64,000 bases of DNA from an uncultured Planctomycetota bacterium. Lineage in GTDB: Bacteria > Planctomycetota > CAZGEP01. Below are positions 1,700 through 43,771 of this stretch, piece by piece; within the stretch, counting starts at the first letter, position 1, and each line of letters starts with the position of its first letter. The position numbers and the translations under genes were made by a program. The notes beneath the pieces are model-generated. The model was given only the letters and a program-made list of their open reading frames with translations. It made no database searches and had not been told where the DNA came from. The stretch lies in NCBI GenBank assembly GCA_964524955.1, contig CAZGEP010000004.1, forward strand, positions 3,627-67,626, given 5' to 3'.

Positions 1700-1956
1700 G
1701 GCAATACCTCCGGACAGGCTCTTCTCCTTTTCACTATTTAAAACGCATGCGTCTTATAAAAGTTCAGAAAAAACTGGACATACAATTCAAATTAAAATAT
1801 ACTTGTTTTAAATTCAGCGCTTGCTGCATTAACTGTTTGATGGCGATTAATTTTCTGGAAAGGACGATTGCGATATTTTTCGACAGTCATTCATTTTCAG
1901 CTATCGACCATAGACCATCGACTATCGACTGCAATTATTTCCAACCGGAGAAATCA

Positions 1957-3333: not shown

Positions 3334-3465
3334 CGCCGCAAAGAGAAGACGAAAGTAGTGAGTAGAGCATGGAAGAATTGGTTGTTTTAAAAATAAACGA
3401 ATGCTTTCTGAAAAAACTCGCATTCGTTCTCTTTATTCTTAACCTTTACCAGCAGGAGCAGAAAA

Positions 3466-4830: not shown

Positions 4831-5129
4831 AGCGATGCTTTACACCGCTGACCACAGAGAGCTGCTTTACCCAATCAACAGATAAGGAATAACTGATAAC
4901 AGCTTTTTAGACAGGATTGACAGGTCGGTATCGGCTGTTTCTGTTTATTAAAAAACGATATCGATACCGATTACGACAGCGAGAATATTCCAAGTGGTGA
5001 CTTCCGGGAAAAGGTGGTTTTTTGCGTTTTCTGCGCATTCTTGCGGTTAATATCTTGTTATCTCATCACTCTTCTCTCATCACCCTTTACTGCCGTTAAA
5101 AGCTATCGACCATCGACGATCGACTGCAG

Positions 5130-7823: not shown

Positions 7824-7927
7824 TCACTTTTTCGGAACAGGTCCGTATACTGTCCTGAGATGATATCGTGGTCTCTGCCGGCAGAAGAAACACATCGGAT
7901 TTCTTCCACGCATATAGACGGAGCAAA

Positions 7928-8920: not shown

Positions 8921-9056
8921 GCCCTTGACTCCTTTCAATGAATGGTTGAATTCAGGATATTTGATTACAATTATTTTACAGACTACTATTGAAAATGCAA
9001 TATATGAAGTTAAAATGTATTCAACTGAATTGCAAACAGATACATAGGGTATCCTT

Positions 9057-10697
9057 ATGCTCAACCAGCTCAGTGTACAAAACCTTGTAATTGTCCGCAG
9101 CGCGGATGTGGAACCGGGAAAAGGACTGACGGTTATCAGCGGTGAAACCGGAGCAGGAAAGACCCTGATCCTCGAAGCCATGAAACTGATCATGGGCGGC
9201 AGGGCATCGGCCAGGCTGATCGGACCGAATTGTCCGGATGCCGCGGTCACCGCCGTCTTTCAGCCGCTGGCCCATGTCAACGAATTCCTTGAAGAAACAC
9301 TGGGGATTTCCGCATCAGACACCCTCATCCTGCGCAGAAAATTATCTCCAGGCGGTAAAAGCCGAGCATGGATCAACGATGTCCCGGTCAGCCTGGCCGG
9401 TCTCAAAAGCGTGGCATGCCTGATGGTGGACCTGACCTCACAGAACGAACACCTGAAACTCTCCAGTCCCGAATATCAGCTGGATATGCTGGACCAGTAT
9501 GGTAAAGCAGTCTCGCTGCGGGATCAGTACCGCGGTATCCACGACCAATGCCTGTCGATCCGCACGAAACTGACCGAACTGGAACAGAGTGAGAACGGCA
9601 GTCTCAAGGAACTGGATTACATGACATTCCTGCTCGAAGAATTCAAGGGCGTGGACCTGGAAGAAGGGGCCTTTGACAAACTGACCCGTGAGCATACCCT
9701 GCTGTCCCAGGCCCTGGACTGGAAGGAAACCGCACGTGATGCAAGCGATGTGCTCAACGAAAAAGACGGCTCTGTCACGGAAATCCTCGGCGACCTTGAA
9801 CGCCGGCTGAACGAGGCGCCGGATGCGGAACTCGCTAACGCGGGCACCTGCTGCGCCCAGGCCCTTGAATCCATCCGCGAAGCCGCGTATATCTGTTCGG
9901 ACGCAGCGGAACGGATTGACTCTAATCCGGAACGCTTTGAAAGACTTGATGAGAAACTCTCCCGATGGCACCAGCTCATCCGAAAACACGGCGGAACCGA
10001 ACAGAGCGTTCTCAACGCCTATGCAGACATCTCCGACCGAATCGATAACCTCCGCAACCTGGGTCCCAAGCGCAAAAGAATGCTGTCCGAGCTCAAACAG
10101 GCAGAGAACGAACAGGACCGGTTGGGCAAGGAGCTGATGGAAGCCCGCAAAAAAGCCTTTAGAAAACTCTCCCGCCGCCTGAAGAAAGAACTCGCGGATC
10201 TCGGGCTTCCCAGGGTCTCGTTCAAGCTTGAATCCCGTAAACTCAAGCACGCCGGATCCGCCGGCACATTCCACCAGGAGCTTCAGATCAGCACCAACCC
10301 GGGAATCGCCCCCGGCCCCATCAAGGATGTTCCCTCCGGCGGGGAACTCTCCAGAATCATCCTGGCCATCCGTGTTGTGCTTGCTGAAAAAGAAACAACC
10401 CCGGTACTGATCTTTGACGAAGTGGACAGCGGCGTCGGCGGACGGCTGGGAAAAACCATCGGAGCCAAACTGCGCGAACTGGCAACCGACCGTACTGTAA
10501 TCGCGGTCACACATACCCCGCAGATTGCGGCCCTGGCGGACAAACAGTACATGGTAGAAAAAGTCCACGAACCCAACACAACCGGCGTTGTGGTGCGGCG
10601 GCTGGACAACCAGGACCGAATTGTTGAAATAACTGATATGCTCGGCGGAGGCAAGTCCGCTGAAAACCAGGCAAGGGAGCTGCTTGAAACCGTATGA
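9057..10697 (+). CDS. recN: DNA repair protein RecN
   Basis: Walker A 'GETGAGKT', SMC-like coiled coil and signature 'SGGELSRIILA'. Length 546 aa. Confidence 0.85.
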   Translation: MLNQLSVQNLVIVRSADVEPGKGLTVISGETGAGKTLILEAMKLIMGGRASARLIGPNCPDAAVTAVFQPLAHVNEFLEETLGISASDTLILRRKLSPGGKSRAWINDVPVSLAGLKSVACLMVDLTSQNEHLKLSSPEYQLDMLDQYGKAVSLRDQYRGIHDQCLSIRTKLTELEQSENGSLKELDYMTFLLEEFKGVDLEEGAFDKLTREHTLLSQALDWKETARDASDVLNEKDGSVTEILGDLERRLNEAPDAELANAGTCCAQALESIREAAYICSDAAERIDSNPERFERLDEKLSRWHQLIRKHGGTEQSVLNAYADISDRIDNLRNLGPKRKRMLSELKQAENEQDRLGKELMEARKKAFRKLSRRLKKELADLGLPRVSFKLESRKLKHAGSAGTFHQELQISTNPGIAPGPIKDVPSGGELSRIILAIRVVLAEKETTPVLIFDEVDSGVGGRLGKTIGAKLRELATDRTVIAVTHTPQIAALADKQYMVEKVHEPNTTGVVVRRLDNQDRIVEITDMLGGGKSAENQARELLETV

Positions 10698-12100
10698 CTG
10701 ATTCATCAAACACATCATCCAATGACTCGTCCCGGACCAAACCCAAGTTTGGAAGCCTGGCCATTAAAAAGGGCTTCATCAGCCGGGACCAAATCCAGGA
10801 ATGCTTGACTATTCAGCAGGAACTCAAACAGACCGGAGTCGATGAAAAACTCGGGAAAATTCTGATCAAACGCGGCTACATGAGCAAAGACCAGATTCTT
10901 GAGATCCTGCAGGAACAGCGCGGAATCGGACTGACCAACCTCAAGGGCTTTGAAGTCATTGACCAGCTGGGCAGTGGATCCATGGGCAGTGTATACAAAG
11001 CCAAACAGATCAGCATGAACCGATGGGTTGCCCTCAAAGTATTGTCCAAGGATCTCTCCGAAGACAGGGACTTTCTTAAGCGCTTTCTCCGGGAAGCCAA
11101 AGCCGTAGCTCGCCTGCACCATGAAAACATCGTCACTGGCCATGACATGAGGAACGAAGGAAATCTCTATTACTTTGTCATGGAATACGTTGAAGGCGAA
11201 ACCCTTAAGGACATTGTAGAAGAAAACGGTGCCTTGCCTGAAGAAAAAATCGCGGAGATTGGATATCGAATCAGTCGAGCCCTTGCACACGCGAATGAAA
11301 AAAACATGATTCACCGGGACATCAAGCCCGAAAACATCATGATAAACAACGAAAACACCCCCAAGCTCACAGACTTTGGTCTGGCCAAGATTATCGATTC
11401 CGACGCCCCGGCCCTGACCATGGCCGGAACCACCATGGGTACCCCCTATTACATGTCTCCGGAACAGGTCCGGGGGGATGAGTCTATTGACATCCGTACC
11501 GACATCTATTCTCTCGGCGCCACACTATACTATGCGCTGACCGGGACCGTGCCCTTTTACGGAAAGAATCCCATGGCGGTCATGGACATGCATCTTCGCA
11601 AACCCCTGGAACCGCCGCACCAGCGAAATACAGCTATCAGCACCCACATGAATCGGATCATCTGCAAGATGATGGAAAAAGAACCGGAAGCACGCTATGC
11701 AACACCGCATGAGCTGGCAAATGAGTTTGAACAGATGGCACCTGGTGAAACCCGTCAGACCACCCGGATTTCCCCTCCCATGCCTCCGGTTCAGTCGGAG
11801 TCGGGTCCTGCGAAAACCCACTGGGCATCCTATGTAATCATCACATTAATCGCATGCTGCGCACTGGTTTTCGGCTACCTTATAATCCATGACCAGAATC
11901 CCGCACCCAACAAGACTCAGGTAGAGATACAGAAACTTCAGACAGAACTCACTCAAATTCAGGACGAGCTCAACCAAATTGAGAAACACAACCTGACCTC
12001 AAAGGAGAATTCCCTGCTCATGAAAATTCAGGTTCGGATCACCAAAACAAAAGAAAAGCTTCAGCAGCTGGAGCAGCGCCGAAAACAGCAGCTCAAATAA
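10694..12100 (+). CDS. Ser/Thr protein kinase with an N-terminal T2SSE_N/MshEN-like domain and a C-terminal TM plus coiled coil
   Basis: Kinase motifs 'GSGSMGSVYKA', 'HRDIKPEN', 'DFGLAK', 'GTPYYMSPE'. N-terminal tandem 'LGxILxxxGxISxDQIxExL' motifs. ATGA overlap with the recN stop codon. Confidence 0.8.
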   Translation: MTDSSNTSSNDSSRTKPKFGSLAIKKGFISRDQIQECLTIQQELKQTGVDEKLGKILIKRGYMSKDQILEILQEQRGIGLTNLKGFEVIDQLGSGSMGSVYKAKQISMNRWVALKVLSKDLSEDRDFLKRFLREAKAVARLHHENIVTGHDMRNEGNLYYFVMEYVEGETLKDIVEENGALPEEKIAEIGYRISRALAHANEKNMIHRDIKPENIMINNENTPKLTDFGLAKIIDSDAPALTMAGTTMGTPYYMSPEQVRGDESIDIRTDIYSLGATLYYALTGTVPFYGKNPMAVMDMHLRKPLEPPHQRNTAISTHMNRIICKMMEKEPEARYATPHELANEFEQMAPGETRQTTRISPPMPPVQSESGPAKTHWASYVIITLIACCALVFGYLIIHDQNPAPNKTQVEIQKLQTELTQIQDELNQIEKHNLTSKENSLLMKIQVRITKTKEKLQQLEQRRKQQLK

Positions 12101-12164
12101 CAACCAAACAGGCAGTAATACGGCACGGGAAAGCCAGTAAAGAACAGGATTCGGAATCTTCACA

Positions 12165-13025
12165 ATGCCCCAGGAATTCGATACCCCAGAAAAAGATTTG
12201 AAGCGTCCCCGCTGCAGATGTTGCGATTCGTTTCTTACGGAATATCCTGTGAGCAAAATTCCATGTTCGTCGGTACAATCGGCTATGTATAAACGTGCTG
12301 CGGCATCAATGAACTATTCAAATAATCACGTTTGGGTTTGTGACGAATGCAGCATTTTCTACCCATGCGAATTCAAGCTGCGTAAATCAAAGAATAGATA
12401 CCGCTACGGCGTGCCAATGTCTGAAGTTTATTATTCTATCTTAGCATGCCCCAGATGCAACCGGCAGATCGTTTGCTCCCATATACCCCCAAAACCATAT
12501 CCTTCTTCCGCAATCTACATATGCGAACACTGTGTGCTGGATAATCCTGAAAAGACTGTATTCGGATTCACCAGGCCGGAACGATCCGAGTACATGTTTT
12601 TCACAACACTTACGTCACAGGAAACCCGCGAACGTCTTCTGGCAGGAGATACCGAAAAACCATCTCAAGCCGGTCGGCACAAACTCTTTTCCACAGGTTC
12701 GGGAACAAAGCGTTTCTCCTATCCAAGAATGATGCCCATTGATCCGCTGTATGTGACGGAAAAACTTCGGAGTCCGATCAAACAGCCCTATTTGAAGATG
12801 CTTTCATTTGCGTTTAAAATCGACCTTCAGAAAGAAGAAGAAAACCGACAGCAGCAGATTGCCGATCACATCCGCCAACACAATCTCAAGGCATGGGATT
12901 GCCCCTTTGCCGGATTCTTCAATGAAATCAAACTCGAACCCGACCACGTGCTGCTGAGCATTACCCCGTCCGGCAAAAAAGGATATCATTATATCTTCTG
13001 CGGACTCATTTGTTCAAAAACCTGA
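12165..13025 (+). CDS. Cysteine-rich hypothetical protein (multiple CxxC zinc-ribbon-like motifs)
   Basis: ORF of 286 aa with at least 6 CxxC pairs. No recognisable catalytic motif. Confidence 0.4.
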   Translation: MPQEFDTPEKDLKRPRCRCCDSFLTEYPVSKIPCSSVQSAMYKRAAASMNYSNNHVWVCDECSIFYPCEFKLRKSKNRYRYGVPMSEVYYSILACPRCNRQIVCSHIPPKPYPSSAIYICEHCVLDNPEKTVFGFTRPERSEYMFFTTLTSQETRERLLAGDTEKPSQAGRHKLFSTGSGTKRFSYPRMMPIDPLYVTEKLRSPIKQPYLKMLSFAFKIDLQKEEENRQQQIADHIRQHNLKAWDCPFAGFFNEIKLEPDHVLLSITPSGKKGYHYIFCGLICSKT

Positions 13026-25103: not shown

Positions 25104-26717
25104 ATGAACCCTGCAACAACCCACACCATCACACCAACTGTACCCGCGCAGAAAAGCGACCGCGTCAGTCTCTGGACAGCGGTTCGGGATTTTGTTTCTT
25201 CCAGCGACCTTGTATCACCGCTGTCCAGAGAAGACCTCGAAACCATGGCTGAAGAACTCTGCACTCAGACTGGAACCGAAACACAGTATCGTGACTTCCT
25301 GATGGTGCTGCTTAATACGGAATCCTGGAAAAAAACGGTATCCATGGTTCCCTATGAACGCCGCATGCTGCTCCTGCCTCAATGCCTGCGCACCCGGTCC
25401 GACTGCCCGGCGGAAATGGATGACCTGGGTCTGCTCTGTGAAAACTGCGACCGATGTCCGCTGGGAAAAATCACGCAGCTTGCCGAAGATCTGGGGTATG
25501 TCACCCTGATTGCAGAAGGCACCACCGTGGTCACCCGGCTCTTTGAGCAGGGAAAGATCGACTGCGTGGTCGGCGCCAGCTGCATGGAAACCCTGGAAAA
25601 GACCTTTCCCCTCAGTGTACGGGAGGCAGTGCCCTCCCTGGCCGTCCCCCTGAACAGCCACGGCTGCGACAACACATCCGTGGACACAGAACAACTGATT
25701 GAAATGATCCGCCTGAGGAATCCGGACCAGACAAGAGAGCGCATCAACATCCCGTCCGTCAAAAATGAAGTACGCTCCTGGTTTGACGCCGATCAGATTG
25801 GCAGCATCCTTGAGAGCAGCCAATCTGAAACCAGCCGGATCGCCACAGACTGGGTGGCAGAAAGCGGAAAACGATGGCGCCCCATTGTTATGGCCTCTGC
25901 CTTTCAGGCGCTCTCAGAAACCACAGCACCCTTCTCAGCAACCATAAAGAAAGCAGCCACTGCAGTGGAATGCTTTCACAAGGCATCCCTGGTTCACGAT
26001 GACATTGAAGACAATGACACCCTGCGAAACGGGCATCAGACCCTGCACCGCAGACACGGAATCCCCATTGCACTGAACATCGGCGATTATCTGATCGGCG
26101 AAGGCTACCGCTTGATCTCCAGTCTGGACCTGGACAGCCAACGCAAATGCCAGATGCTTTCCATTGCCTCTCAATGTCATCACACGCTCTGTCTGGGACA
26201 GGGAGAAGAACTCGCTATGCTAAAGGCTGATCTTCCACCCACACCACATAAACTCCGAGAAATATTCGCCAACAAGACATCACCGGCATTTGAGACCGGG
26301 CTTCGGCTCGGAGCAGCCTGCGCAAATGCAGACAGCAAAACCCATCCGATACTCTCCGCCTACAGCAGCGCCATTGGCATTGCCTATCAGATCAATGATG
26401 ATCTCCACGATCTTAACACAGACACCATAGAAGCCAATCCTGCTGTACTCAAAACATCATTTCTCCTTGCCATGGCCTGGGAATCCGCTAAAGAGGCAGA
26501 GCGAAAGGATCTTGCTCAATTCTGGAACAACCCCAATGCAGACACAAATAAAGAAAGACTGCTCTGCATTCTTAATCAGCTGAATATCCGGGAACAGGCT
26601 TCTGATATTATTGAAACGTATCAGCGTACAGCTCTGGAATCACTCAGACCTCTACAGAATACAGATCTGAAAATCCTTCTCTGGCGCCTCAGTCACAGAA
26701 TTTTTGAGGATGAGTAG
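25104..26717 (+). CDS. Fusion protein: N-terminal Cys-rich domain of unknown function (DUF116-like?) plus a C-terminal trans-isoprenyl diphosphate synthase domain
   Basis: FARM 'DDIED' and SARM 'DDLHD' motifs in the C-terminal 270 aa. The N-terminal about 260 aa have a CxxCxxC cluster. Starts 6 nt after the sulfatase stop. Confidence 0.6.
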   Translation: MNPATTHTITPTVPAQKSDRVSLWTAVRDFVSSSDLVSPLSREDLETMAEELCTQTGTETQYRDFLMVLLNTESWKKTVSMVPYERRMLLLPQCLRTRSDCPAEMDDLGLLCENCDRCPLGKITQLAEDLGYVTLIAEGTTVVTRLFEQGKIDCVVGASCMETLEKTFPLSVREAVPSLAVPLNSHGCDNTSVDTEQLIEMIRLRNPDQTRERINIPSVKNEVRSWFDADQIGSILESSQSETSRIATDWVAESGKRWRPIVMASAFQALSETTAPFSATIKKAATAVECFHKASLVHDDIEDNDTLRNGHQTLHRRHGIPIALNIGDYLIGEGYRLISSLDLDSQRKCQMLSIASQCHHTLCLGQGEELAMLKADLPPTPHKLREIFANKTSPAFETGLRLGAACANADSKTHPILSAYSSAIGIAYQINDDLHDLNTDTIEANPAVLKTSFLLAMAWESAKEAERKDLAQFWNNPNADTNKERLLCILNQLNIREQASDIIETYQRTALESLRPLQNTDLKILLWRLSHRIFEDE

Positions 26718-26738: not shown

Positions 26739-28184
26739 ATGACATCCTGGTCAATGATTTTTGGAATCTTACTGATACTGACATTGCCGATATATGGTCT
26801 GTGGAGTATCGTTGGCGCACTCAGTAGTTTTCACCTTGAAAAATCGTATAAACTGGATATCATCAAAAAAACATGCAATTTTTTGAAGGCACTCAAGCCG
26901 TTGAAAACAACTCATACAATTATTACCGGTGACAGTCGCCAGATGAATCTGGTAGAGGATCAATCCGTTCAGCTTGTCATTACATCACCGCCCTATTGGC
27001 AACTCAAAGATTACGGAACTGAAAACCAGATCGGTTTTCATGAAGATTATGAAACGTATATCAACAATCTGAATATAGTCTGGAAAGAATGTTACCGTGT
27101 GCTGGAAAACGGCTGCCGTTTATGTATAAATATCGGTGATCAGTTTGCCAGAGCAGTTTATTACGGCAGATATAAAATCATTCCAATTCGTACGGAAATC
27201 ATCAAGTTTTGTGAAAGCATTGGATTTGATTACATGGGAGCCGTTATCTGGCAGAAACACACCACAACAAATACAACCGGTGGTGCCTCCTTAATGGGGA
27301 GCTACCCAACACCTCGAAACGGTATCGTATCTATTGATTATGAATTTATTCTCCTATTCAAGAAACTTGGAAAACCTTTAAGGGTCAAAAAAGAGGTCAA
27401 GAATGAGTCAAAGTTGACCAAGGAAGAATGGAAAGAATATTTTTCCGGACACTGGACATTCGGCGGCATACGGCAGAACGGCCACATTGCCATGTTTCCT
27501 GAAGAACTGCCCAAACGATTGATTAAAATGTTCGCTTTTGTCGGAGAAACGGTCCTAGATCCATTTATGGGAAGCGGAACCACAAGCCTTGCAGCCAGAA
27601 ATCTGAACAGGAATTCGATTGGGTATGAAGTCAACCCGGAATTCATTACAGTAGCCAAAGAAAAACTGAATATCGACCAGGGTGATTTTTTCGGCACAGA
27701 GTATCTCTTCAAGAACGACCATTTTAGTCTGAATGTCAACAAAGAGTTGTCTTCTTTGCCGTATCGTTTCAGAGATCCCCACCAACTGGACAAAAAGACT
27801 GACCCAAGAATGATGCAGTTCGGTTCAAAAATAAACAATTCTGCATCTGAAAGAGAAACCTATTATTCTGTAAAAGAGATCATCAGCCCGGAACTGATTA
27901 AATTAAGCAATGGAATTATCATACGCCTGATCGGTGTAAAAGAGAAACCAAATGTCAACGGAAAAGCAACACAATTCCTTAAAACTAAAACAAAGGGACA
28001 GAGGGTTTTCTTAAAATATGACACCCAGAAACACGATGAAGACAATCACTTGATGTGCTATTTGTATTTAAAAAATAAAACATTTATCAATGCCCATCTG
28101 ATAAAAACCGGCCTTGTAGAACCGGATTGTTCGATGAGCTTCAAATACAAAGATAAATTTATGCGCCTGGGAGTGGGAGAATAA
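26739..28184 (+). CDS. Beta-class DNA methyltransferase (N4-C or N6-A) fused to a C-terminal staphylococcal-nuclease (SNase)-like domain
   Basis: Motif IV 'TSPPY' precedes motif I 'DPFMGSGTT'. C-terminal 'IIRLIGV...GKATQFL...VFLKYD...NAHLIKTGLVEPD' is SNase-like. AT-rich. Confidence 0.7.
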   Translation: MTSWSMIFGILLILTLPIYGLWSIVGALSSFHLEKSYKLDIIKKTCNFLKALKPLKTTHTIITGDSRQMNLVEDQSVQLVITSPPYWQLKDYGTENQIGFHEDYETYINNLNIVWKECYRVLENGCRLCINIGDQFARAVYYGRYKIIPIRTEIIKFCESIGFDYMGAVIWQKHTTTNTTGGASLMGSYPTPRNGIVSIDYEFILLFKKLGKPLRVKKEVKNESKLTKEEWKEYFSGHWTFGGIRQNGHIAMFPEELPKRLIKMFAFVGETVLDPFMGSGTTSLAARNLNRNSIGYEVNPEFITVAKEKLNIDQGDFFGTEYLFKNDHFSLNVNKELSSLPYRFRDPHQLDKKTDPRMMQFGSKINNSASERETYYSVKEIISPELIKLSNGIIIRLIGVKEKPNVNGKATQFLKTKTKGQRVFLKYDTQKHDEDNHLMCYLYLKNKTFINAHLIKTGLVEPDCSMSFKYKDKFMRLGVGE

Positions 28185-28820
28185 ATGGCCAAGGAATGGA
28201 TATTAAACAGCGCAATGAACCGTTTCCAGCTGAATTTCAAACGAAATGTTGGCCCTACATCAGAAAGCATACGGGCGTGCGAGCCAAAGACCCTGGAAGA
28301 GTGGAAAGCGTATTATTTCCGGGAAGTTCGGAGCAAAGACCACATCATTGATCTTGGCAAGAAACTTTACATCAAGATTACGGAAGTCATTCAAGCCGAA
28401 GTCGAGCAAATAACAGAGCAAGACTGCATAGACTATATGCTGAAGATGGTCGTTGAGAGAACATTTGATGGATACATCACTGAAATCAAAACGATATACG
28501 GACAAATAGAAAAAGAACTGGGATGCAAGGTAAAACCTTCATCGGATGAATGGGACAGAAAGTTCAACGTGGATTTCTTTATTAAAGTAAACGACTATTA
28601 TCTTGGCCTTCAGATCAAACCGGTAAACGAGGGCATTCAGCTCTCACAAATATATAAAGAAAAAGATCTTCAGAAAACAAGCCATCAGAAATTCACTGAT
28701 CAATTCGGCGGTCAAGTCTTTTATATCTTTTCTACCAAAGTCAGTGGAAATAAAATTATTAAAAATCCGGAAGTTATTGACGAAATCCGAAACGAAATCA
28801 CCCGGCTTAACCATGCCTGA
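28185..28820 (+). CDS. Putative type II restriction endonuclease (PD-(D/E)xK-like), partner of the upstream methyltransferase
   Basis: The ATG abuts the methyltransferase stop (TAAATG). AT-rich. Candidate 'E-x-D...D-x12-Q-I-K' catalytic arrangement. No other family recognised. Confidence 0.4.
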   Translation: MAKEWILNSAMNRFQLNFKRNVGPTSESIRACEPKTLEEWKAYYFREVRSKDHIIDLGKKLYIKITEVIQAEVEQITEQDCIDYMLKMVVERTFDGYITEIKTIYGQIEKELGCKVKPSSDEWDRKFNVDFFIKVNDYYLGLQIKPVNEGIQLSQIYKEKDLQKTSHQKFTDQFGGQVFYIFSTKVSGNKIIKNPEVIDEIRNEITRLNHA

Positions 28821-29685
28821 TCTCTTTGCCCGAATGATTCAGACCGCTTCATATTCAACAGAGCAGCTTGAGCCGGATGCACGTGAAGACATCACCTCAT
28901 TCATCCTCAACTGCATGAATCCGGACGGCGGTTTTCAGGGGCGTTCTGAGGAAAGCGACCTCTATTACACCTGCTTTGCGCTCATGTCCCTTCATGCGCT
29001 TGGAAAAACAATGCCCGAAGACACAACCGACTGGCTCATCAGCCAGGCCGCGAAGCCGCCAACAGATCGGGTCCACCTCGCCTCACTGATCCTATGCCTT
29101 GAAATAACCGGACAGGCTCAGAAGGCAAACCTGCTGCGAAAAAAACTCCAGCCATCCTGTGCGGACATTCTACACTGCAAAATATCAGGCAGCAAAAACA
29201 CTGAAAACCTGTACAGCATATTCCTGTCCATGCTCTGTATGAAACCCCCGGAAGATACCGTACCGAACGCTCAAAGACTGACCCGGGAGCTTGAGACGTT
29301 TCAAGTCCGAAACAAAACCTATGCCAACGAACCCGGCAGCAGCCAGTGCAGTACGCCGGCCACAGCCGCGGCCCTGGCAATTCTTTTCGCACTCAACATT
29401 ACGCCGGATCCCCGGACAATCAACCACCTGATAACCATGCATGAGAAGACCGGTGGATTCAGGGCCGCGGAACTCACCCCACTTCCTGACCTGCTCTCCA
29501 CCGCCACAGCCCTCTTCTCGATCAGTCTCCACCAGAGCATACCGCAAGCTATCAAGAAGCCGTGCCTGACGTTTATCCAGGACTGCTGGCTGAAAAACGG
29601 GGGCTTCTGCGGCAGCCTTGTGGATGATATGCCGGACTGCGAGTATACCTTTTACGGACTGCTGGCGCCGGGATGCGTTGGTTAA
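28813..29685 (+). CDS. Prenyltransferase/squalene-oxidase-repeat (PFTB-like alpha-alpha toroid) protein, cytoplasmic
   Basis: Repeated 'GGF' and aromatic motifs. The start overlaps the REase stop codon (ATGCCTGA). Confidence 0.5.
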   Translation: MPDLFARMIQTASYSTEQLEPDAREDITSFILNCMNPDGGFQGRSEESDLYYTCFALMSLHALGKTMPEDTTDWLISQAAKPPTDRVHLASLILCLEITGQAQKANLLRKKLQPSCADILHCKISGSKNTENLYSIFLSMLCMKPPEDTVPNAQRLTRELETFQVRNKTYANEPGSSQCSTPATAAALAILFALNITPDPRTINHLITMHEKTGGFRAAELTPLPDLLSTATALFSISLHQSIPQAIKKPCLTFIQDCWLKNGGFCGSLVDDMPDCEYTFYGLLAPGCVG

Positions 29686-30552
29686 AGACAGTCGATGGTC
29701 AATGGTCTATGGCTAATTGCGCTGAAAACCTCCGAATTGACAGGATAAAGAATGACAAAGTATGCATCGCACGGTCGCCGCAGGCATGCAGTTGATCCGT
29801 CCGCTGACGGAAGACACAGGGGCACGGAGAAAAACAACAGCTAAAGATTTTCAACAACGAAATAGACGAAATAAACGAAAAAACTGCATTGAAAACAGAA
29901 TTATGGGAACGCTGAAGATGCAAGAGACGCTATCAAAAGATCAGCACTGCCACAGCCGGTCATGGCCCGGCGCGTCCGGGGCATCCAGGAGCAGCCGACA
30001 CCGATTACGTCCTTATCCGTATATCCTGTTTATCCTGTAAATCCTGTCCAATTCTCTTTCTTTTTGTTGTTCTGAACTAAGACAAAATAGTAGACGGGAT
30101 TGACGGGTCGGCGGAGCCTTGTTTTTGATCCGCCTAGGCGGAATTGACAGGATGAGAAAAGAACAGAACTCTCCTTGTTCTGCGATTTCAGACTGTCAAT
30201 AAAAAGATGAATCCGCTCATCAAGCGTTTTCTCCCGGTTCTGGCTGGAAAGCAAAATAAACTTACTCGCCCAGATTGCGTGAAACTTAATAGTAGACGGT
30301 TTTACCAGTTTTTTATCCTCTAGATACTGCTGAAATTCTTTCAGAACAGCCCTAATATATTCGTTTCTCCTTAATAGGCAAAGTAAATGCTATTAAAATA
30401 TAGTCATACTATCATACATTCCAATTCGAATATTTCAAAAAAATAATTTTTTATTTGACACGGTTCAGTGGTTTTATAAAATTTACCGTTGTCAGAAATC
30501 ATAACTGTAACCTATACACACTAAATTGTTCCCGTCGCGCTGCGCGCGACGG

Positions 30553-30709
30553 GAACGGCGAGTTGAGGGCTTCGCCCCTCGCCCGATTAGTTCCCTGCGC
30601 GCTGATTCGCGCGCCGAGAACAAATCGTTCGAGGGGTCCATTGGCCTATCAACTCCGGGCGCTGAAGCGCCCTCCGATGATAGGTCAACGGCCCCTCAAC
30701 TCGCCGTTC
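30553..30709. repeat. GC-rich, multi-hairpin palindromic element (MITE/REP-like) with about 17-bp terminal inverted repeats
   Basis: Left TIR 'gaacggcgagttgaggg' and right TIR 'ccctcaactcgccgttc'. Internal hairpins include 'gagggcttcgcccctc', 'gcgcgctgattcgcgcgc' and 'gggcgctgaagcgccc'. Confidence 0.5.
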
Positions 30710-30720
30710 GAAGCAAGAGA

Positions 30721-30942
30721 ATGAAGAAACTGAATCGCGAAGAATTGATCATCCTTGTTCAACGCATCATGGATGTCGATGGCACAGAAGAAGAGATCGA
30801 CCAGATGATGGACACATTGGAGGCCAACGTGATCCACCCGGAAGTCTCCGATCTGATATTCTACTCAAAGAAGGAAGACCCGGCCGCAGAGGAGATCGTG
30901 GACGAAGCACTGGCTTACAAGCCCATCATTCTTGGGCCGTGA
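30721..30942 (+). CDS. Colicin/pyocin DNase immunity protein (Im7/Im9 family)-like small protein
   Basis: 73 aa. '...HPEVSDLIFYSKKEDP..EEIV' parallels Im9 '...[23 protein letters not shown]'. Confidence 0.55.
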   Translation: MKKLNREELIILVQRIMDVDGTEEEIDQMMDTLEANVIHPEVSDLIFYSKKEDPAAEEIVDEALAYKPIILGP

Positions 30943-32166: not shown

Positions 32167-32757
32167 ATGAGCGTAGAATTACTTTCTGACTTTATCAGAG
32201 AAAAATATGAGGTGCATGAATGGAAACATGCGTGTGCCATATTGAAAGAGGATTTTACGAACGAATGGAATGATATTATATCTGTATTGGAAAGTTTTCG
32301 CCTAAAAAAGAGTTGGATTACAACTCCAGGAGGCAGGAAATCAAAGGTTTCTGCATATATTGATGGCTATTTATATGATAGGGATTGGGTTGAAAAAGAA
32401 TTTGAGACGAAAGTGACTGTTGATGATCATACAATGGACACACCAACTCATAAAATCGACTGTTTTAAAAATAGAGTGGCTCTTGAAATTGAGTGGAACA
32501 ACAAGGACCCTTTTTATGACCGAGACCTAAATAATTTCAGATTACTGTTTGATTTACGTGCAATTAGCGTTGGAGTGATCATTACACGCTGTGAAGATCT
32601 TCAAGATATTTTCAATGATTTGGGAAGAGGGGCATCTTATGGTGCATCTACAACGCATATGGGGAAATTACTCCCAAGGATTGAAGGTGGAAGTGGAGCT
32701 GGTTGTCCACTCGTTGTTTTTGGAATATCAAAATCACTTTATGTGGAGGATTGCTAA
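32167..32757 (+). CDS. Type II restriction endonuclease of the BglII/BamHI/BstYI family
   Basis: 'KIDCFKNRVALEIEWNNKDPFYDRDLNNFRLL' aligns with BglII 'DIDFGKRDTLVEVQFSNYPFLLNNTVRSELF' (D-x8-E-x-E/Q). RBS 'aaaggag'. AT-rich. Confidence 0.6.
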   Translation: MSVELLSDFIREKYEVHEWKHACAILKEDFTNEWNDIISVLESFRLKKSWITTPGGRKSKVSAYIDGYLYDRDWVEKEFETKVTVDDHTMDTPTHKIDCFKNRVALEIEWNNKDPFYDRDLNNFRLLFDLRAISVGVIITRCEDLQDIFNDLGRGASYGASTTHMGKLLPRIEGGSGAGCPLVVFGISKSLYVEDC

Positions 32758-32759
32758 TT

Positions 32760-33410
32760 ATGAACGCATCTGATGATCTGTTAAATTTTATTGGAAAAAG
32801 AAAATTTTCAACAATACTTGCTGACCCTCCATGGCAGTTTCAAAACAGGACGGGCAAAATGGCACCAGAGCATAAAAGGTTATCTCGGTACCCTACGATG
32901 AAATTACAAGAAATTAAAGATTTGCCGGTTGAAGCTATTGCGGAAGACCGAGCACATCTTTATTTGTGGGTTCCAAATGCACTTTTATCTGAAGGCATGC
33001 AAGTTATGGAGAATTGGGGATTTAAATATAAAACAAATCTAATATGGTACAAGATTAGAAAAGACGGCGGCCCCGATAGAAGAGGTGTTGGATTTTATTT
33101 TAGAAATGTGACTGAAATAATTCTTTTTGGTGTTCGGGGCAAGAATATCAGAACACTACAACCCGGAAGAAGTCAGGAAAACATTATATCATCAAGAAAA
33201 AGAGAACACAGTAGAAAACCAGATGAACAATATGATTTAATTGAATCTTGTAGTTGGGGACCTTTCTTAGAACTTTTTGGTAGAGGGCCAAGAGAAGGCT
33301 GGACAACTTGGGGCAATCAGGCAGAAGAATATACCCCTGATTGGGAAACATATTCAAACCATTCTAATGGGGATAGAATAATACCGTTTAAGAAAGTCAG
33401 GACAGGTTAA
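32760..33410 (+). CDS. MT-A70-family N6-adenine DNA methyltransferase
   Basis: 'ILADPPWQF' (DPPW) motif. RBS 'ggagga'. Starts 3 nt after the REase stop. Confidence 0.7.
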   Translation: MNASDDLLNFIGKRKFSTILADPPWQFQNRTGKMAPEHKRLSRYPTMKLQEIKDLPVEAIAEDRAHLYLWVPNALLSEGMQVMENWGFKYKTNLIWYKIRKDGGPDRRGVGFYFRNVTEIILFGVRGKNIRTLQPGRSQENIISSRKREHSRKPDEQYDLIESCSWGPFLELFGRGPREGWTTWGNQAEEYTPDWETYSNHSNGDRIIPFKKVRTG

Positions 33411-33423
33411 TCACTAGAATCGT

Positions 33424-34269
33424 ATGCATTATTATACGCAAAACTATAACAATGTGATGGATTTTGAGCGATCATGCATGGTTGCAGAAGAAGCTAATCC
33501 ACCATTCTATTATGATGTTTCTAATGGAATAAAACTATATAATGCAGACACTTTTTCATTTTTCAAAAATATACCAGATGGTTGTGTTGATCTAATATTT
33601 GCCGATCCTCCGTATTTCCTGTCTTCAGGAGGTATAACTTGCCATAGTGGTAAAATGGAAAATGTAAATAAGGGGGAATGGGATAAATCAAAACCAATTG
33701 AGGAAATTCACAATTATAACAAACAGTGGCTATCAGAGTGCAATCGTATTTTGAAAAAGCATGCTACTATTTGGGTTTGTGGAACATTTCACAATATTTT
33801 TTCTGTCGGATTCGCTTTGCAAGAATTAGATTTTAAAATATTAAACAATATAGTGTGGGAAAAGAAAGATCCTCCGCCGAATTTAACAAAAAAATACTTT
33901 GTCCATGCTTCTGAACATCTTCTTTGGGCATCAAAAACAAAATATTCTAAGCATATCTTTCATCAAGATGCTCTCAAAGAAGTTTCAAACGGGGAACCAA
34001 TGAAGTCTGTATGGAGGGATATATGGAAATTGCCATCAGTAGATCATTTAGAGAAAGTTTTTGGTAAACACCCAACACAAAAACCAGAAGAGGTTATTCG
34101 GAGAGCAGTGCTTGCATCAAGTAATATTGGGAGTCTGGTTTTCGATCCATTTTGTGGTAGTGGGACAACAGGAGTTGTCTGTAGAAGAATGAACAGAAGG
34201 TTTGTTGGCGTTGATAATAATTTAAAGTACTTGGATATCGCAAAAAAAAGAATAGCATCAGTAAAATGA
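33424..34269 (+). CDS. Beta-class DNA methyltransferase (N4-cytosine or N6-adenine; DPPY)
   Basis: Motif IV 'FADPPY' precedes motif I 'DPFCGSGTTG'. Confidence 0.7.
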   Translation: MHYYTQNYNNVMDFERSCMVAEEANPPFYYDVSNGIKLYNADTFSFFKNIPDGCVDLIFADPPYFLSSGGITCHSGKMENVNKGEWDKSKPIEEIHNYNKQWLSECNRILKKHATIWVCGTFHNIFSVGFALQELDFKILNNIVWEKKDPPPNLTKKYFVHASEHLLWASKTKYSKHIFHQDALKEVSNGEPMKSVWRDIWKLPSVDHLEKVFGKHPTQKPEEVIRRAVLASSNIGSLVFDPFCGSGTTGVVCRRMNRRFVGVDNNLKYLDIAKKRIASVK

Positions 34270-40267: not shown

Positions 40268-40570
40268 ATGGCTTTGATTAAGTGTCCTGAATGCAATAAT
40301 GACGTATCGACCTCGGCAGCGTCGTGTCCCAAATGTGGCGCACCTATAGCGTCACAAACTAGCCGCATCACCGAACCAACAATACCGAGGGGAAAAGTAC
40401 AATGCGGGCATTGCCGGGCAATCGTAAAACCTCAAAAAATGGAAGCTGGATGTAGCTCACTGATCATAGCTATACTACTTCTCTGCCTTGGTATTATCCC
40501 TGGAGTAATCTATATCATTTGGGAAAGTAGCAGAAAACAATGTCCAAACTGCAAACTGCCAATAAAGTGA
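40268..40570 (+). CDS. Zinc-ribbon domain protein with a C-terminal TM helix
   Basis: 'CPECNN...CPKCG' and 'CGHC...CPNC', plus a hydrophobic stretch 'LIIAILLLCLGIIPGVIYIIW'. Confidence 0.5.
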   Translation: MALIKCPECNNDVSTSAASCPKCGAPIASQTSRITEPTIPRGKVQCGHCRAIVKPQKMEAGCSSLIIAILLLCLGIIPGVIYIIWESSRKQCPNCKLPIK

Positions 40571-40582
40571 ACGACGCCCAAC

Positions 40583-40611
40583 AACGGTTGAGGGCTTCGC
40601 CCCTCGCCGTT
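40583..40611 (+). repeat. GC-rich hairpin 'aacggttgagggcttcgcccctcgccgtt', a copy of the repeat family at 30563..30583
   Basis: The 21-mer 'ttgagggcttcgcccctcgcc' is identical at 30563 and 40588. Lies 13 nt after the zinc-ribbon gene stop. Confidence 0.6.
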
Positions 40612-40675
40612 GGACCAGCCATATCGATAGCCAGACCGAATCTGTGGCGCAGGGCGCGAAGCGAGTATTCAGAGT

Positions 40676-43471
40676 ATGTCAAACCATTGGTACAACATCG
40701 AAGGCTGTCTGACATTCTATCGTGATCTGAAAGGGGTAGAGCAGTGGCTCATACGCGGCCACAAGGAGTTACCCACCTCGGACTTCAGCGGGCTTCTCGA
40801 TACTGTCATGCGTTGGCTAGTTGACAACCCAGCGTATGGCGACATCGCGGCGGATGTTGTTCAGCTCCTCTCCGGGTACGACCCCAAATACACTGCGCAG
40901 TGGCACGAGGCTGAGGAGGCCCGCAGGCGTGAAGCGGAACTCCGCGCACGAGAGATACAGGAAGCACAGGAACGCCGGAAGAAGGAAACTGAACTACTCG
41001 CACAGCAGCAACGAGAGGCTGAGGCGCGTCAAAGACGTGAGCGCAAACTTGCGGAGAAAAAGCAGGCACTCATGGACCGTTGCCACGAGTGGTTTCAGAC
41101 GGACTTCCTTACAGCGGACAGGCGCTTCAGAGACGATGCCGACCGCAAGCTGCTAACGGCTCGTGAGTATTCTGAGTTGAAGACAGCCTTTGTCCAGGGT
41201 TGGGTCCACACAGAGCTTCACCTGTCGCTTGATATCGAGCAGGCTCAGGCGGTCGCCGGTGGACCCCGCGACATGCTGGTTGTTGCCAGAGCGGGTGCTG
41301 GTAAGACCCGCACGCTAGTCACCCGCGCCGTCTTTCTCCAGAAGCACTGCGGTGTCCCGCCTGCCGCCCTGCTTCTGCTTGCGTTCAATCGCGATGCTGC
41401 GCGGGAAATGCAGCAGCGGCTGCATGAAGCCTTGGGTGGCGATTTGCCACACATCATGACCTTCCACGCATTGGCCTATGCGTTGGTGCATCCGGACGAG
41501 GAACTCGTCTATGACAAGCCCTCAGCCGGAAGTCTCGGCCACAGCCGTGCGATTCAACAAGCCATCGATGAACACCTGCAGGCGGACCGGTACCGTGCCA
41601 TGATCCGCGACCTGATGCTCTTGCACTTCAAAGATGATTGGGAGCGCATAGTTGCCGGTGGGTTCAACCTGCCAATCGAGGAGTTGATCGAATACCGGCT
41701 GGCATTGCCGCGCGAGACTCTGAGGGGCGAGTACGTCAAGTCCTTCGGAGAGAGACTAATCGCCAACACACTCTTTCAGAACGACGTGGAATACAAATAC
41801 GAACGAAACTATCGGTGGAATGGCGTCAACTACCGGCCCGACTTCACTATCCTGCTGCCCGGACGGCGTGGCGTTGTAATCGAGTACTTTGGTCTCGAAG
41901 GTGAACGCGACTACGATGAGATGTCAGCAGACAAGCGGGCGTTTTGGGCTTCCCGCCAGGGTTGGACCCTGATCGAATTCTACCCACAAGATATTGCATC
42001 TCAAGGTGTTGATGGTTTTACCGAGTGCATTGTGAAGCGTTTAGCTGATGCCGGGGTCACAACTCGTTCTCTTTCAGATGACGAAATATGGCAGCGCATT
42101 CGCAGACGGGCCATCGACAGTTTCACAGGCGCAGTTCGGTCGTTAGTCAGTCGCTGCCGGAAACTGAACCTAACGGGCGAGCAGTTGGCTGGCTTAATCG
42201 ACGGTCATACCCCGATTACTGAAGCAGAACGGTTGTTTCTGGCTGTGGGAGCGTCTGTATACGTTGCGTATCTGGAGCGCCTCCGGTCTTCTCAACAAGA
42301 GGATTTCGACGGCCTGATGTGGAGGGCAATCACCTTGGTGGATTCTGGCCATAGCCAGTTTGCACGGGACAGAGGGCGCGAGCGCGGAGACTTGCGTAGA
42401 ATCCGCCATGTGCTGGTAGATGAGTTTCAGGACTTCTCTCAGATGTTCTACCGCATGGTGCAAGGGATTCGGACACTCAGTCCGCACGCCGACTTCTTCT
42501 GTGTGGGTGACGACTGGCAAGCAATCAACGGCTTTGCTGGCTCGGACTTGAGATTCTTCCGTGAGTTCAGCGAATTGTTCCGAGAGCCAACAACCTTTAC
42601 CGTCAGCACCAATTATCGTTCACCAGCAGGAGTTGTTGAACTCGGGAATGCCCTGATGGTAGGACGCGGGAGTCCCGCCAAGCCACACCGAGAAGACGCC
42701 GGGTGTGTGAGACTGGCAGACTTAGGCAGTTTCATGCCGTCACCCGCCGAACGAGCACGACATGAAGGGGATGATGCGACCCCATTTCTGCTTCGGCTGA
42801 TTCGGCGGTTGCTTGATTGTGGCGATTCCATCGTGCTCCTCTCGCGACGTAACGGCGTTCCTTGGTATGTGAAGTACCATGCTGACCTGCCAGCCGCTGT
42901 CGATGGGCTTGAACGCTTCGCTGAGCACATCCGCATGTTCTTACCGGAAGACGAGCGCGGCCGCCTGACCGCCTCGACTGCCCACCGGTACAAAGGCCGT
43001 GAACGAGAGGCTGTAATCATACTCGACGCCGACGAAGGCTGCTATCCTCTCATCCATCCCAACTGGGAATTCCTCCGAGTGTTTGGCGATACGTTGGAAG
43101 CCATTGAGTCAGAGGAGCGCCGGCTATTTTACGTGGCGCTGACCCGATCCCAGAAGACGCTGGTCGTTCTTGTCGAGAGCGAGAGGCGCGAAAGCCCTTA
43201 CCTGAGAGAGATCAAAACGCGCGAGGATATTCAAGCAATCGAATGGGAGCAACTCCGCCCAGTGCCTTCGCTTGATGGCGACAGACTGGAAGTGCACGTG
43301 TCAAATGCATATGAGGTCCACAATGAACTGGCGGCGCAGGGATATCGATGGGAGGAGGGCCAGAAGTACTGGTATCGTCTGGTGATGGCGGAAGGTTTCG
43401 ACTTGCGCAACCTGAAGCGTCAAGCGTGGGCGCGACAGGGCGTGTGTATCGACGGGTTACTGTTTTCTTAA
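40676..43471 (+). CDS. UvrD/Rep-like SF1 helicase with an embedded Vsr/DUF559-like PD-(D/E)xK nuclease-like domain and an N-terminal coiled coil
   Basis: Motif I 'ARAGAGKTRT', II 'VLVDEFQDFS', III 'VGDDWQAINGFAGSD', IV 'TNYRS', V/VI 'TAHRYKGRE...LFYVALTRSQKTL'. Insert at about aa 345-440, 'NYRPDFTILLPGRRGVVIEYFG'. Confidence 0.7.
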   Translation: MSNHWYNIEGCLTFYRDLKGVEQWLIRGHKELPTSDFSGLLDTVMRWLVDNPAYGDIAADVVQLLSGYDPKYTAQWHEAEEARRREAELRAREIQEAQERRKKETELLAQQQREAEARQRRERKLAEKKQALMDRCHEWFQTDFLTADRRFRDDADRKLLTAREYSELKTAFVQGWVHTELHLSLDIEQAQAVAGGPRDMLVVARAGAGKTRTLVTRAVFLQKHCGVPPAALLLLAFNRDAAREMQQRLHEALGGDLPHIMTFHALAYALVHPDEELVYDKPSAGSLGHSRAIQQAIDEHLQADRYRAMIRDLMLLHFKDDWERIVAGGFNLPIEELIEYRLALPRETLRGEYVKSFGERLIANTLFQNDVEYKYERNYRWNGVNYRPDFTILLPGRRGVVIEYFGLEGERDYDEMSADKRAFWASRQGWTLIEFYPQDIASQGVDGFTECIVKRLADAGVTTRSLSDDEIWQRIRRRAIDSFTGAVRSLVSRCRKLNLTGEQLAGLIDGHTPITEAERLFLAVGASVYVAYLERLRSSQQEDFDGLMWRAITLVDSGHSQFARDRGRERGDLRRIRHVLVDEFQDFSQMFYRMVQGIRTLSPHADFFCVGDDWQAINGFAGSDLRFFREFSELFREPTTFTVSTNYRSPAGVVELGNALMVGRGSPAKPHREDAGCVRLADLGSFMPSPAERARHEGDDATPFLLRLIRRLLDCGDSIVLLSRRNGVPWYVKYHADLPAAVDGLERFAEHIRMFLPEDERGRLTASTAHRYKGREREAVIILDADEGCYPLIHPNWEFLRVFGDTLEAIESEERRLFYVALTRSQKTLVVLVESERRESPYLREIKTREDIQAIEWEQLRPVPSLDGDRLEVHVSNAYEVHNELAAQGYRWEEGQKYWYRLVMAEGFDLRNLKRQAWARQGVCIDGLLFS

Positions 43472-43679
43472 ATTGTTTATCCATAATTCTGCCTCCATAT
43501 CGATATAACCGGCCGAGGTAAAACGTAACTCGGAAAAAATAAAAAAATATTGGAATTGTTATTTTATTAAACAAGCAGCGGACTGACAGGGAAAAGTGCT
43601 TGATGTAAAAGATACGTATACGCGAAAAGCGATATCAGACAGGGAAAGAGAAAGGTATTATCCTCTCCCTGGCAACACG

Positions 43680-43726
43680 TTACAAAAATATAACCGCCAC
43701 AGCATACTGCCGTGGCGGTTATATTT
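43680..43726 (-). terminator. Rho-independent terminator for 43772..47551
   Basis: Perfect 15-bp stem 'aaatataaccgccac/gtggcggttatattt' with an 11-nt loop, followed on the minus strand by a U-run. Confidence 0.6.
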
Positions 43727-43771
43727 ACGTGATGTTTATTCTTTCGACGAAACTGCGAAACATACCATCTA

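Follow-up and report, generated by a model that had tools for sequence, protein, structure and literature searches.

Proteins that unite a helicase motor with a nuclease in one chain are central to DNA repair, as in RecBCD and AddAB, and to several anti-phage systems. To our knowledge, the nuclease is terminal or tethered in all well-studied fusions of this kind. Hhe, which is said to be a one-gene anti-phage system whose helicase bears a Vsr-type endonuclease domain, has a motor that is Upf1/DNA2-like rather than UvrD-like, and in repair, nicking by Vsr or MutH and unwinding by UvrD are carried out by separate proteins. Here, we describe a gene of a different design, located on 64,000 nucleotides (nt) of DNA from an uncultured Planctomycetota bacterium (contig CAZGEP010000004.1, positions 3,627 to 67,626; hereafter the window). 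The open reading frame (ORF) at 40676..43471 on the + strand is complete and encodes 931 amino acids (aa) plus stop, which form a helicase-IV-like helicase of superfamily 1A (SF1A) with a nested nuclease-fold domain, as judged from Pfam, AlphaFold2 (AF2) and Foldseek. In this protein, a Vsr-type domain is embedded in the portion of the motor that lies over the DNA fork in UvrD-type helicases, and the family to which it belongs is fairly widespread and uncharacterised.

The protein is a credible candidate for a new single-gene immunity system. Its predicted domains and the genomic contexts of its relatives are consistent with a stand-alone helicase-nuclease that would protect the host, or the host's mobile element, against incoming foreign DNA such as phages and rival plasmids, and we give this function an even chance of being correct. 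An initial annotation, made from the letters of the window, had proposed a UvrD-like helicase with an internal nuclease fold and a role in defence or repair; what it observed is confirmed with corrections, and its interpretation is partly supported.

The helicase motor and its nested domain

The UvrD-like ORF of 931 aa was recovered as annotated, with agreement between Pfam, motifs and Foldseek, except that the start previously placed at 40268 belongs to a separate 100-aa zinc-ribbon ORF (40268..40570), the helicase itself starting at 40676. The Pfam model UvrD-helicase (PF00580) matches aa 188-635 (E 9e-39; 134 bits against a cut-off of 23), covering 448 protein aa for a model of 271 positions, and UvrD_C (PF13361) matches aa 762-833 (E 2e-10; 40.8 bits against a cut-off of 25.6). 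All SF1 motifs listed in the initial annotation were found, and an alignment of the protein with 39 relatives shows no variation in them: Q189, GAGKT at 207-211, DEFQD at 582-586, VGDDWQAINGFAGS at 610-623 and NYRS at 646-649, as well as H770/K773/G774 and T823/R824. With both Pfam thresholds passed and motifs Q, I, Ia, II, III, IV, V and VI in place, the protein belongs to the SF1A UvrD/Rep superfamily, and by these residues the motor looks catalytically intact. The full-length AF2 model (predicted local distance difference test, pLDDT, 87.3; predicted template modelling score, pTM, 0.72) retrieved UvrD, PcrA and Rep first in a Foldseek search, followed by AdnB, AddA and RecB. An exact look-up of the helicase sequence returned no identical protein on record.

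Alignment to UvrD1 of M. tuberculosis shows where the extra sequence lies. Residues 185-279 of the query correspond to UvrD1 residues 23-119 and residues 514-679 to UvrD1 residues 177-341; because the gap of the alignment falls between these blocks, the ~175 additional aa are placed in domain 1B and not in 2B. The stretch from motif IV to motif V comprises only ~120 aa, and 2B is therefore largely missing. Thus, the insert indeed sits between motif Ia/Ib and motif II, as had been proposed, and does not represent a variant 2B subdomain of housekeeping UvrD or PcrA. The first part of motor domain 1A (aa 184-275; 41225..41500) contains Q189, the Walker A motif GAGKT (nt 41294-41308) and motif Ia, and is followed by an N-terminal helical part of 1B (aa 276-333; 41501..41674; AF2 helices 288-327), in which the UvrD1 alignment breaks at aa 279. 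The nuclease-fold core occupies aa 334-458 (41675..42049). A C-terminal helical part of 1B (aa 459-575; 42050..42400; AF2 helices 468-556) leads back to the motor, the UvrD1 alignment picking up again at aa 514 and that to E. coli HelD at aa 526, and the second part of 1A together with 2A (aa 576-835; 42401..43180) holds motifs II (DEFQD, nt 42419-42433), III, IV, V and VI.

That the insert has a PD-(D/E)xK fold is well supported. A model of aa 320-475, built from an alignment of 40 diverse relatives (pLDDT 86.5, pTM 0.83), displays the alpha-beta-beta-beta-alpha-beta core with acidic residues on beta2 and beta3. Its closest compact solved structure is the repair enzyme Vsr, with Can2, TnsA, restriction enzymes and Hjc at lower ranks. 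The Foldseek matches to the PDB are weak (best E 0.01, none at E<=0.001), and the top ones are nearly all PD-(D/E)xK nucleases. At the level of sequence, the insert has no match in the PDB, and its best Pfam match is a sub-threshold one to RmuC (E 0.005), with no Vsr or DUF559 model appearing even at E<=10. Comparison of profiles is more telling: the E. coli DUF559 protein YcjD aligns at E 6.8e-5 (63 % probability), pairing 'YrPDF' of the insert with 'YILDF', 'VVIEYFG' with 'VVVELDG' and 'KR..W...GWT' with 'RR..W...GWT', and a weak HHalign match to Vsr (E 0.022) pairs RPDF with RPDF, D389 with Vsr D51 and E359 with Vsr E25. Searched alone against PADLOC, the insert matches the nuclease parts of the defence candidates PDC-S68 (8.5e-13), HEAT_CxxC_PD-DEXK (8e-11) and PDC-S69 (3e-7). 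The block quoted in the initial annotation as the nuclease signature, NDVEYKYERNYRWNGVNYRPDFTILLPGRRGVVIEYFG, corresponds to aa 369-406, its RPDF starting at nt 41834, and the proposal of a Vsr/DUF559-like nuclease fold holds. Assignment to the Vsr/DUF559 sub-clade, within which the closest structural neighbour falls, is moderately supported: the catalytic histidines of Vsr and the E.DG..H signature of DUF559 are not matched, 'IEYFG' standing in place of 'VELDG' and 'FTHG', and the lysine two residues past the beta3 acidic residue (the ExK lysine) is missing. An early idea that the insert resembles T7 endonuclease I was not borne out.

The candidate active site on the + strand consists of E359 (nt 41750-41752), D389 (41840-41842), E403 (41882-41884) and K420 (41933-41935). 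Among 72 family members from species genomes, reaching down to 27-30 % overall identity, E359 and D389 are each kept in 69, E403 in 68 and K420 in 67, i.e. all four in at least 93 %, with E376 kept in 68 of the 72, and the insert is among the best-conserved portions of the protein in the family alignment. The E/D/E residues sit at the alpha1, beta2 and beta3 positions, which are the acidic sites of DUF559 (D, E) and Vsr (E25, D51). At the position of the ExK lysine, however, residue 405 is F, W, I, L, A or Y in 71 of the 72 members and K in none, and given that the lysine is replaced by Phe or Trp, catalysis is not assured. Vsr-type enzymes (1cw0) and the Vsr/DUF559 clade also lack this lysine, and K420, located on the helix after beta3, might substitute for it.

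A second observation that bears on activity comes from a subclade of Acidimicrobiia and Ca. Poriferisodalis (L046, L064 and L068), which carries E359Q, P388A and E403R. Its intact copies, L046 and L068, retain all motor motifs in spite of the lost E359 and E403, so that the domain can persist there without the acidic residues. These exceptions, the uniformly hydrophobic residue at the ExK lysine position and the failure of any Pfam nuclease family to reach threshold on the insert are what a catalytically dead domain would predict, one that would serve a pure helicase or translocase as a module for binding DNA or RNA or for sensing structure. Such a module concerns the mechanism only and would fit any biological role. 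We consider it rather unlikely, in view of the conservation of the four candidate residues over great distances, their positions in the fold and the Vsr-type enzymes that do without the same lysine; moreover, defence by Hhe requires the glutamate of its Vsr domain (bioRxiv 10.1101/2022.06.16.496414). The three subclade loci share local synteny, including a second UvrD-like helicase gene downstream. At one of them (L064, 11230-12194), the family gene is broken near aa 521-547 by ~960 nt, either side of which carries the same 27-aa overlap; this copy, the upstream ORF of which stops at 11119, is probably an insertion-disrupted pseudogene.

If the nuclease is active, its location suggests how it might work. 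UvrD, Rep, PcrA and helicase IV translocate 3'-to-5' on single-stranded DNA, with 1B sitting over the fork, and by analogy with them the motor described here would do the same. Since 1B occupies this position in UvrD-type helicases, a nuclease embedded in it would cut the DNA that the motor has engaged: it could nick to create an entry site from which unwinding then proceeds, or cut the strands while they are being separated. Tentatively, we therefore picture an unnamed single-protein immune system in which a Vsr-type nuclease, nested in 1B of a UvrD-type motor without 2B, would be mechanically coupled to translocation, so that engagement of foreign DNA would lead directly to nicking and unwinding or to shredding, and the gene of which would also mark one edge of a hotspot at which integrative elements exchange defence genes, for example Zorya or type I restriction-modification (R-M) systems. 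This detailed version is possible, though we would not call it probable.

The full-length model is made up of four parts, namely a variable bundle (aa 8-66), a long helix (71-142), the motor with its nested domain and a small alpha/beta domain (870-930). The N-terminal helical bundle (aa 1-66; 40676..40873, + strand; AF2 helices within 8-66) is poorly conserved in a profile of 121 sequences, often being shorter or absent among relatives, and has no Pfam or PADLOC match. The Arg/Glu/Ala-rich segment that follows (aa 71-142; 40886..41101, +), previously annotated as a coiled coil, is modelled by AF2 as a single continuous helix. Its length varies within the family, with more than 20 % gaps at aa 85-122, and it is possibly a coiled-coil dimerisation element; as such, it may dimerise the enzyme and allow two nuclease domains to act together. 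Helices at aa 144-183 (41105..41224, +), with conserved F144, L145 and W176, lead into the motor, and the NCBIfam helicase IV model aligns with its positions 86-284 to query residues 74-272. The C-terminal domain (aa 855-931; 43238..43468, +) is predicted to consist of strands 870-876, 891-893, 898-904 and 924-930 and a helix at 879-887. It is conserved across the family, including W857, W899 and W918, and has no significant Pfam, PADLOC or PDB-sequence match.

Distribution and genomic contexts of the family

A search of 5.8 billion proteins revealed more than 1,300 relatives, the best 120 of which are 48-66 % identical and mostly 840-1030 aa long. When the insert profile was compared with 1.84 billion cluster representatives, 217 clusters matched at E<=1e-30 and 588 at E<=1e-10. 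Of the full-length profile matches, almost all have 900-1100 aa and carry the domain at residues ~300-500, and this uniformity of length and position ties the domain subtype to one architecture. In a survey of one genome per species, relatives occur at 589 or more loci in 185,579 species and without conserved synteny, which argues against a universal gene in a syntenic core context. They are spread over at least 12 phyla, comprising Chloroflexota, Actinomycetota, Gemmatimonadota, Bacillota, Cyanobacteriota, Poribacteria, Pseudomonadota, Desulfobacterota, Armatimonadota, Planctomycetota, Verrucomicrobiota and Bacteroidota, and are also found in two archaeal metagenome-assembled genomes (MAGs). 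Identity across phyla reaches 55 %. Patchy spread combined with such high cross-phylum identity points to an accessory gene that moves horizontally. A phage-borne origin was considered and rejected, the family being present in 0 of 50,697 phage records; on plasmids, it occurs in 4 of 72,556.

Not all copies appear intact. A distant member on an IncP conjugative plasmid of Pseudomonas veronii (L088, 8019-9266) is apparently truncated to 415 aa and has an IS21 element (istA/istB) directly downstream. Partial matches to the N- or C-half, away from contig ends, were seen at four loci from Poribacteria and cyanobacteria (L044, L045, L053 and L061), which may be split, interrupted or decayed copies. 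Two further matches (L043, L059) are also partial and begin at a contig end, such that truncation may explain them. An XisH gene is among the neighbouring genes scanned.

Clustering of the neighbouring ORFs within 6 kb at 80 loci yielded none common to more than four loci, showing that the family has no obligatory partner gene. To characterise the wider surroundings, we used precomputed annotation of nine 10-kb contexts, which belong to the eight relatives (50-56 % identity) on the longest contigs and to the closest relative (65 %). Defence systems or conjugation genes lie within 10 kb in seven of the nine. One locus (L089) comprises ArdC, an integrase, a complete type I Zorya system (ZorA/B/C/D) and the helicase, followed by the core genes DciA and RecA, and another (L095) has ArdC, an integrase and type I R-M with a Schlafen-like ATPase ahead of the helicase. 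A third (L096) carries a type III-like R-M system directly upstream and on the same strand, with Res, a DUF4062/HATPase/Fic-like protein and a 1098-aa methylase, and a fourth (L094) a HigB-like toxin-antitoxin pair, IS66, a TIR protein, a FokI-domain protein and a type ISP enzyme. Two copies reside in conjugative regions: one (L090) within an integrative conjugative element with pilin, TrbL, TraG, primase, relaxase and integrase, which also holds a patatin plus E2/ThiF/JAB module and a HEPN/DUF499 protein, and the other (L091) in a region with TrbL/Toprim. ARPP-1, DUF6361, AAA_16, a second UvrD-like helicase and an M78 peptidase make up a conflict-type cluster at L092, and L001, the closest relative, is accompanied by a C5 methylase, YqaJ, a transposase and a fragment of Shedu type. 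L093 is surrounded mainly by housekeeping genes and has an MmeI-type enzyme ~9 kb away. As a rough expectation, well below one in five random 20-kb stretches would contain a defence system, and by this estimate, which is not a computed statistic, seven to eight of nine would be far above chance. The link to defence and mobile regions proposed in the initial annotation is thus better supported by the contexts of relatives than by the window alone.

Comparison of the first two of these loci (L089 and L095, positions 1-12877 of each) is particularly informative. They have just two DNA blocks in common, one covering ArdC and the integrase (88 %) and the other the helicase plus ~200 nt upstream (72 %); the 8.6 kb between the blocks are unrelated, as are the sequences downstream. 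In this family of elements, the helicase forms one conserved edge of a hotspot for the exchange of defence cargo, and islands of the form integrase, cargo, helicase may serve as a marker for new defence cargo.

Being retained alongside ArdC and integrase while the cargo between them turns over is also what one would expect of a backbone gene of the mobile element itself, acting in replication, excision, transfer or establishment by nicking and unwinding, as a relaxase or Rep protein does together with PcrA, or in ArdC-like anti-defence. The two copies located between type IV secretion system genes in the conjugative regions, and the family member adjoining a tyrosine recombinase on the Anabaena plasmid pANA03, fit this explanation as well. 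We nevertheless find it unlikely, given that the integrative conjugative element has its own relaxase, primase and coupling proteins, that the two conjugative regions resemble each other in the helicase gene only, that plasmid copies are few and phage copies absent from the records searched, and that many copies, including that of the window, have no element genes nearby.

The other biological role to be weighed against protection from foreign DNA is that of an accessory repair or recombination enzyme, in which a helicase-IV-like motor and a Vsr-type nicking domain would nick at a lesion, mismatch or branched intermediate and then unwind. Its best arguments are that DNA helicase IV is the best curated family, the core being colinear with E. 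coli HelD, and that the repair enzyme Vsr is the closest solved compact structure. The high sequence conservation, the housekeeping-type neighbourhood in the window and at many genome loci, and the local synteny kept within Poribacteria and Acidimicrobiia would fit it too; one relative (L089) even lies beside DciA and RecA, though these are outside the island boundary. Sporadic distribution at high cross-phylum identity is, however, unexpected for a core repair gene, and the defence or conjugation genes in seven of nine contexts and the behaviour of the gene as a flank of a cargo hotspot on an integrative element likewise speak for another role. In addition, the protein scores far under the helicase IV equivalog threshold (178 versus 543 bits), and the Vsr histidines have no counterpart in the alignment. 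On balance, a repair function seems improbable to us.

Several observations weigh against the immune function that we favour, in addition to those on the ExK lysine position and the Acidimicrobiia copies given above. The sample of contexts is small (nine loci) and was compared without a control set. When the nearest two ORFs on each side were inspected at 37 species-genome loci, using crude ORF calls, they were mostly one-off housekeeping genes, with resolvase, integrase, Uma2, PIN, BREX, type IIG and DRT genes as minority neighbours. In some lineages, namely Poribacteria and Acidimicrobiia, the local context of the gene is conserved, which is what one would expect of a stable chromosomal gene. 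Mean column identity is 47 % over the 931 aa, which is unusually high for an immune gene, and no PADLOC v2 family matches the protein at full length. In the window, the immediate neighbours of the helicase are sulfatase and glycoside-hydrolase genes, there is no tRNA and no integrase or transposase among the ORFs scanned, and the gene is not a compositional outlier, its GC content at third codon positions (GC3) being 0.624 at a window median of 0.572 (sd 0.10).

The family would be informative under either biological role. If protection against foreign DNA is its function, it represents a compact one-gene system and a new way to couple unwinding to cutting; if repair, it would unite in a single protein the nick-then-unwind logic of mismatch repair. 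In both cases, it provides an instructive relative for helicase IV, the role of which is poorly understood.

Surroundings of the gene in the window

Taken alone, the window offers weak contextual evidence for a defence role. The helicase had been assigned to a GC-rich island with repeat hairpins, yet its GC3 lies close to the window median and within the range of its hydrolase neighbours (0.62-0.66). Only one hairpin was found, at 43677-43735, all other repeats being short two-copy matches at chance level. With no GC anomaly and a single hairpin, the notion of a GC-rich island with repeat hairpins is unsupported. The inverted repeat (28-nt arms, 82 % complementary, 3-nt loop) is located in the 300-nt gap between the helicase and a convergent 1259-aa gene, contains a terminator-like site at 43706-43719, and is probably a bidirectional terminator.

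R-M genes are indeed present nearby, as two cassettes that are the sole true GC3 outliers of the window; they lie 6.4 and 11.9 kb upstream of the helicase, beyond sulfatase and glycoside-hydrolase-type genes, rather than next to it. The more distant cassette (26739-28820; GC 0.40) encodes an N6/N4 methylase and an MjaI-type enzyme. Its flanks are a polyprenyl synthetase/DUF116 gene (25104-26717) on one side and a prenyltransferase-like gene (28744-29685) on the other, which gives it the look of an insertion into a cluster of isoprenoid genes. The nearer one (32167-34269; GC 0.35-0.37, GC3 0.26-0.29) comprises a BglII-type endonuclease, an MT-A70 methylase and an N6/N4 methylase and is situated directly upstream of two sulfatase genes. 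Between the R-M cassettes and the helicase, these sulfatase genes are joined by a pair of genes with matches of glycoside-hydrolase type, in one case weak. For the flanking hydrolase, a 100 % identical copy is known (P0121), and the next relative (71 %) stems from a Lentisphaerae MAG with an unrelated neighbourhood.

The orphan immunity gene of the initial annotation is real: the last 73 aa of the ORF at 30526-30942 match colicin/pyocin DNase immunity proteins (PF01320, Colicin_Pyocin immunity; 24.9 bits against a cut-off of 21.2), and no toxin gene is evident nearby. The zinc-ribbon gene immediately upstream of the helicase (40268..40570, +, 100 aa) exists as well, but a role as its partner does not stand. 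Pfam identifies it as a double zinc-ribbon/LITAF-like membrane ORF (zf-LITAF-like, Zn_Ribbon_1), in which a zinc ribbon at the N-terminus is accompanied by a further CxxC pair and a membrane segment of LITAF-like/Pmp3-like type. Its GC3, at 0.386, is far lower than those of its neighbours (0.624 for the helicase), an upstream zinc-ribbon ORF was found at 0 of 71 homologue loci, and tblastn gave no significant matches beside the homologues.

Comparison with described systems

Measured against the named families that we tested, the protein is a member of none, and no curated model names it specifically. The best curated family is the helicase IV equivalog NF008276, which the protein matches in three stretches with 177.8 bits, against a cut-off of 543. 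E. coli DNA helicase IV (HelD, b0962; PRK11054) has the same SF1A core, in colinear order, together with a reduced 2B and an N-terminal extension of its own. By BLASTP, HelD 197-284 and query 185-272 are 44 % identical, and HelD 393-675 and query 526-848 are 27 % identical. In contrast to the query, HelD is without the ~145 aa nuclease-fold domain, which would fall between its residues 284 and 393, and without the C-terminal 85 aa; conversely, Pfam Helicase_IV_N was not detected in the query, which also departs from the nuclease-free form of ~684 aa that characterises HelD. By these comparisons, the protein classes as helicase-IV-like, and not as a helicase IV orthologue.

Gram-positive HelD, which recycles RNA polymerase (6wvk, 6yys), likewise combines an N-terminal helical extension with a 2B-less motor and an extra domain in 1B. 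Its N-terminus is a Gre-like hairpin and its 1B domain a clamp-opening arm, whereas the query has a 72-residue single helix and a nuclease fold at these positions. A HelD-like role at RNA polymerase was rejected on account of the NF041464 score (25.6 bits against a cut-off of 419), the Foldseek rank of 27 or lower and the shape of the helix.

Among UvrD-type helicases of defence systems, GajB and RTasHel, the latter associated with UG35, are the best PADLOC models (E 6e-33 and 1.5e-32). These models, of 570-675 positions, have no counterpart of the insert. GajB needs GajA, an OLD-type ATPase-TOPRIM nuclease. The UG35 helicase accompanies a methylase-reverse transcriptase (PMC9226505). Membership of either family, of which the GajB-like one had been suggested by the initial annotation, was rejected: the matches consist of three separate stretches of generic motor, and no GajA or reverse transcriptase was found among the scanned neighbours of the gene or listed among those of its relatives. 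Nhi and Hna, named in the same context, are absent from the best 25 of 49 full-length PADLOC matches and from the matches of three parts of the protein searched separately.

AddA, RecB and AdnAB resemble the protein in joining a UvrD-type SF1A motor and a PD-(D/E)xK nuclease in one chain. Their nuclease is of the RecB type, C-terminal and tethered, and they act as heteromers with AddB, RecC/D or as AdnA/B; in the protein described here, a Vsr-type nuclease is nested in 1B instead. NCBIfam scores for the AddAB, RecBCD and AdnAB families are 31-71 bits, against cut-offs of 650-1697, and the protein shows neither a C-terminal nuclease match nor a conserved neighbour.

With the Vsr/DUF559/RAP clade (Vsr, 1cw0; NGO0050, 3hrl; I-Bth0305I, 3r3p; YcjD), the insert shares the fold and the order of its elements, which in both run from a Glu-bearing helix to a (Y/R)PDF strand and on to a hydrophobic strand ending in Glu, without the ExK lysine. 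It differs in being nested within a helicase domain and in having 'IE(Y/H)(F/W)G' in place of the Vsr His and of 'E.DG..H'; no counterpart of K420, which lies on the next helix, is stated for the clade. We found no description of this architecture in the open-access literature searched, which included large defence-discovery papers.

The closest functional analogue is Hhe (Gao et al. 2020), in which one polypeptide also combines a helicase with a Vsr-type nuclease. Hhe does not appear among the four PADLOC families matched by the insert or among the best 25 of 49 full-length matches. As a single-gene defence system, it loses protection when its Vsr-type nuclease is mutated (E1731A; bioRxiv 10.1101/2022.06.16.496414). 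Hhe is much larger and carries this nuclease near its C-terminus, whereas the protein described here has 931 aa and holds its nuclease-fold domain inside the motor.

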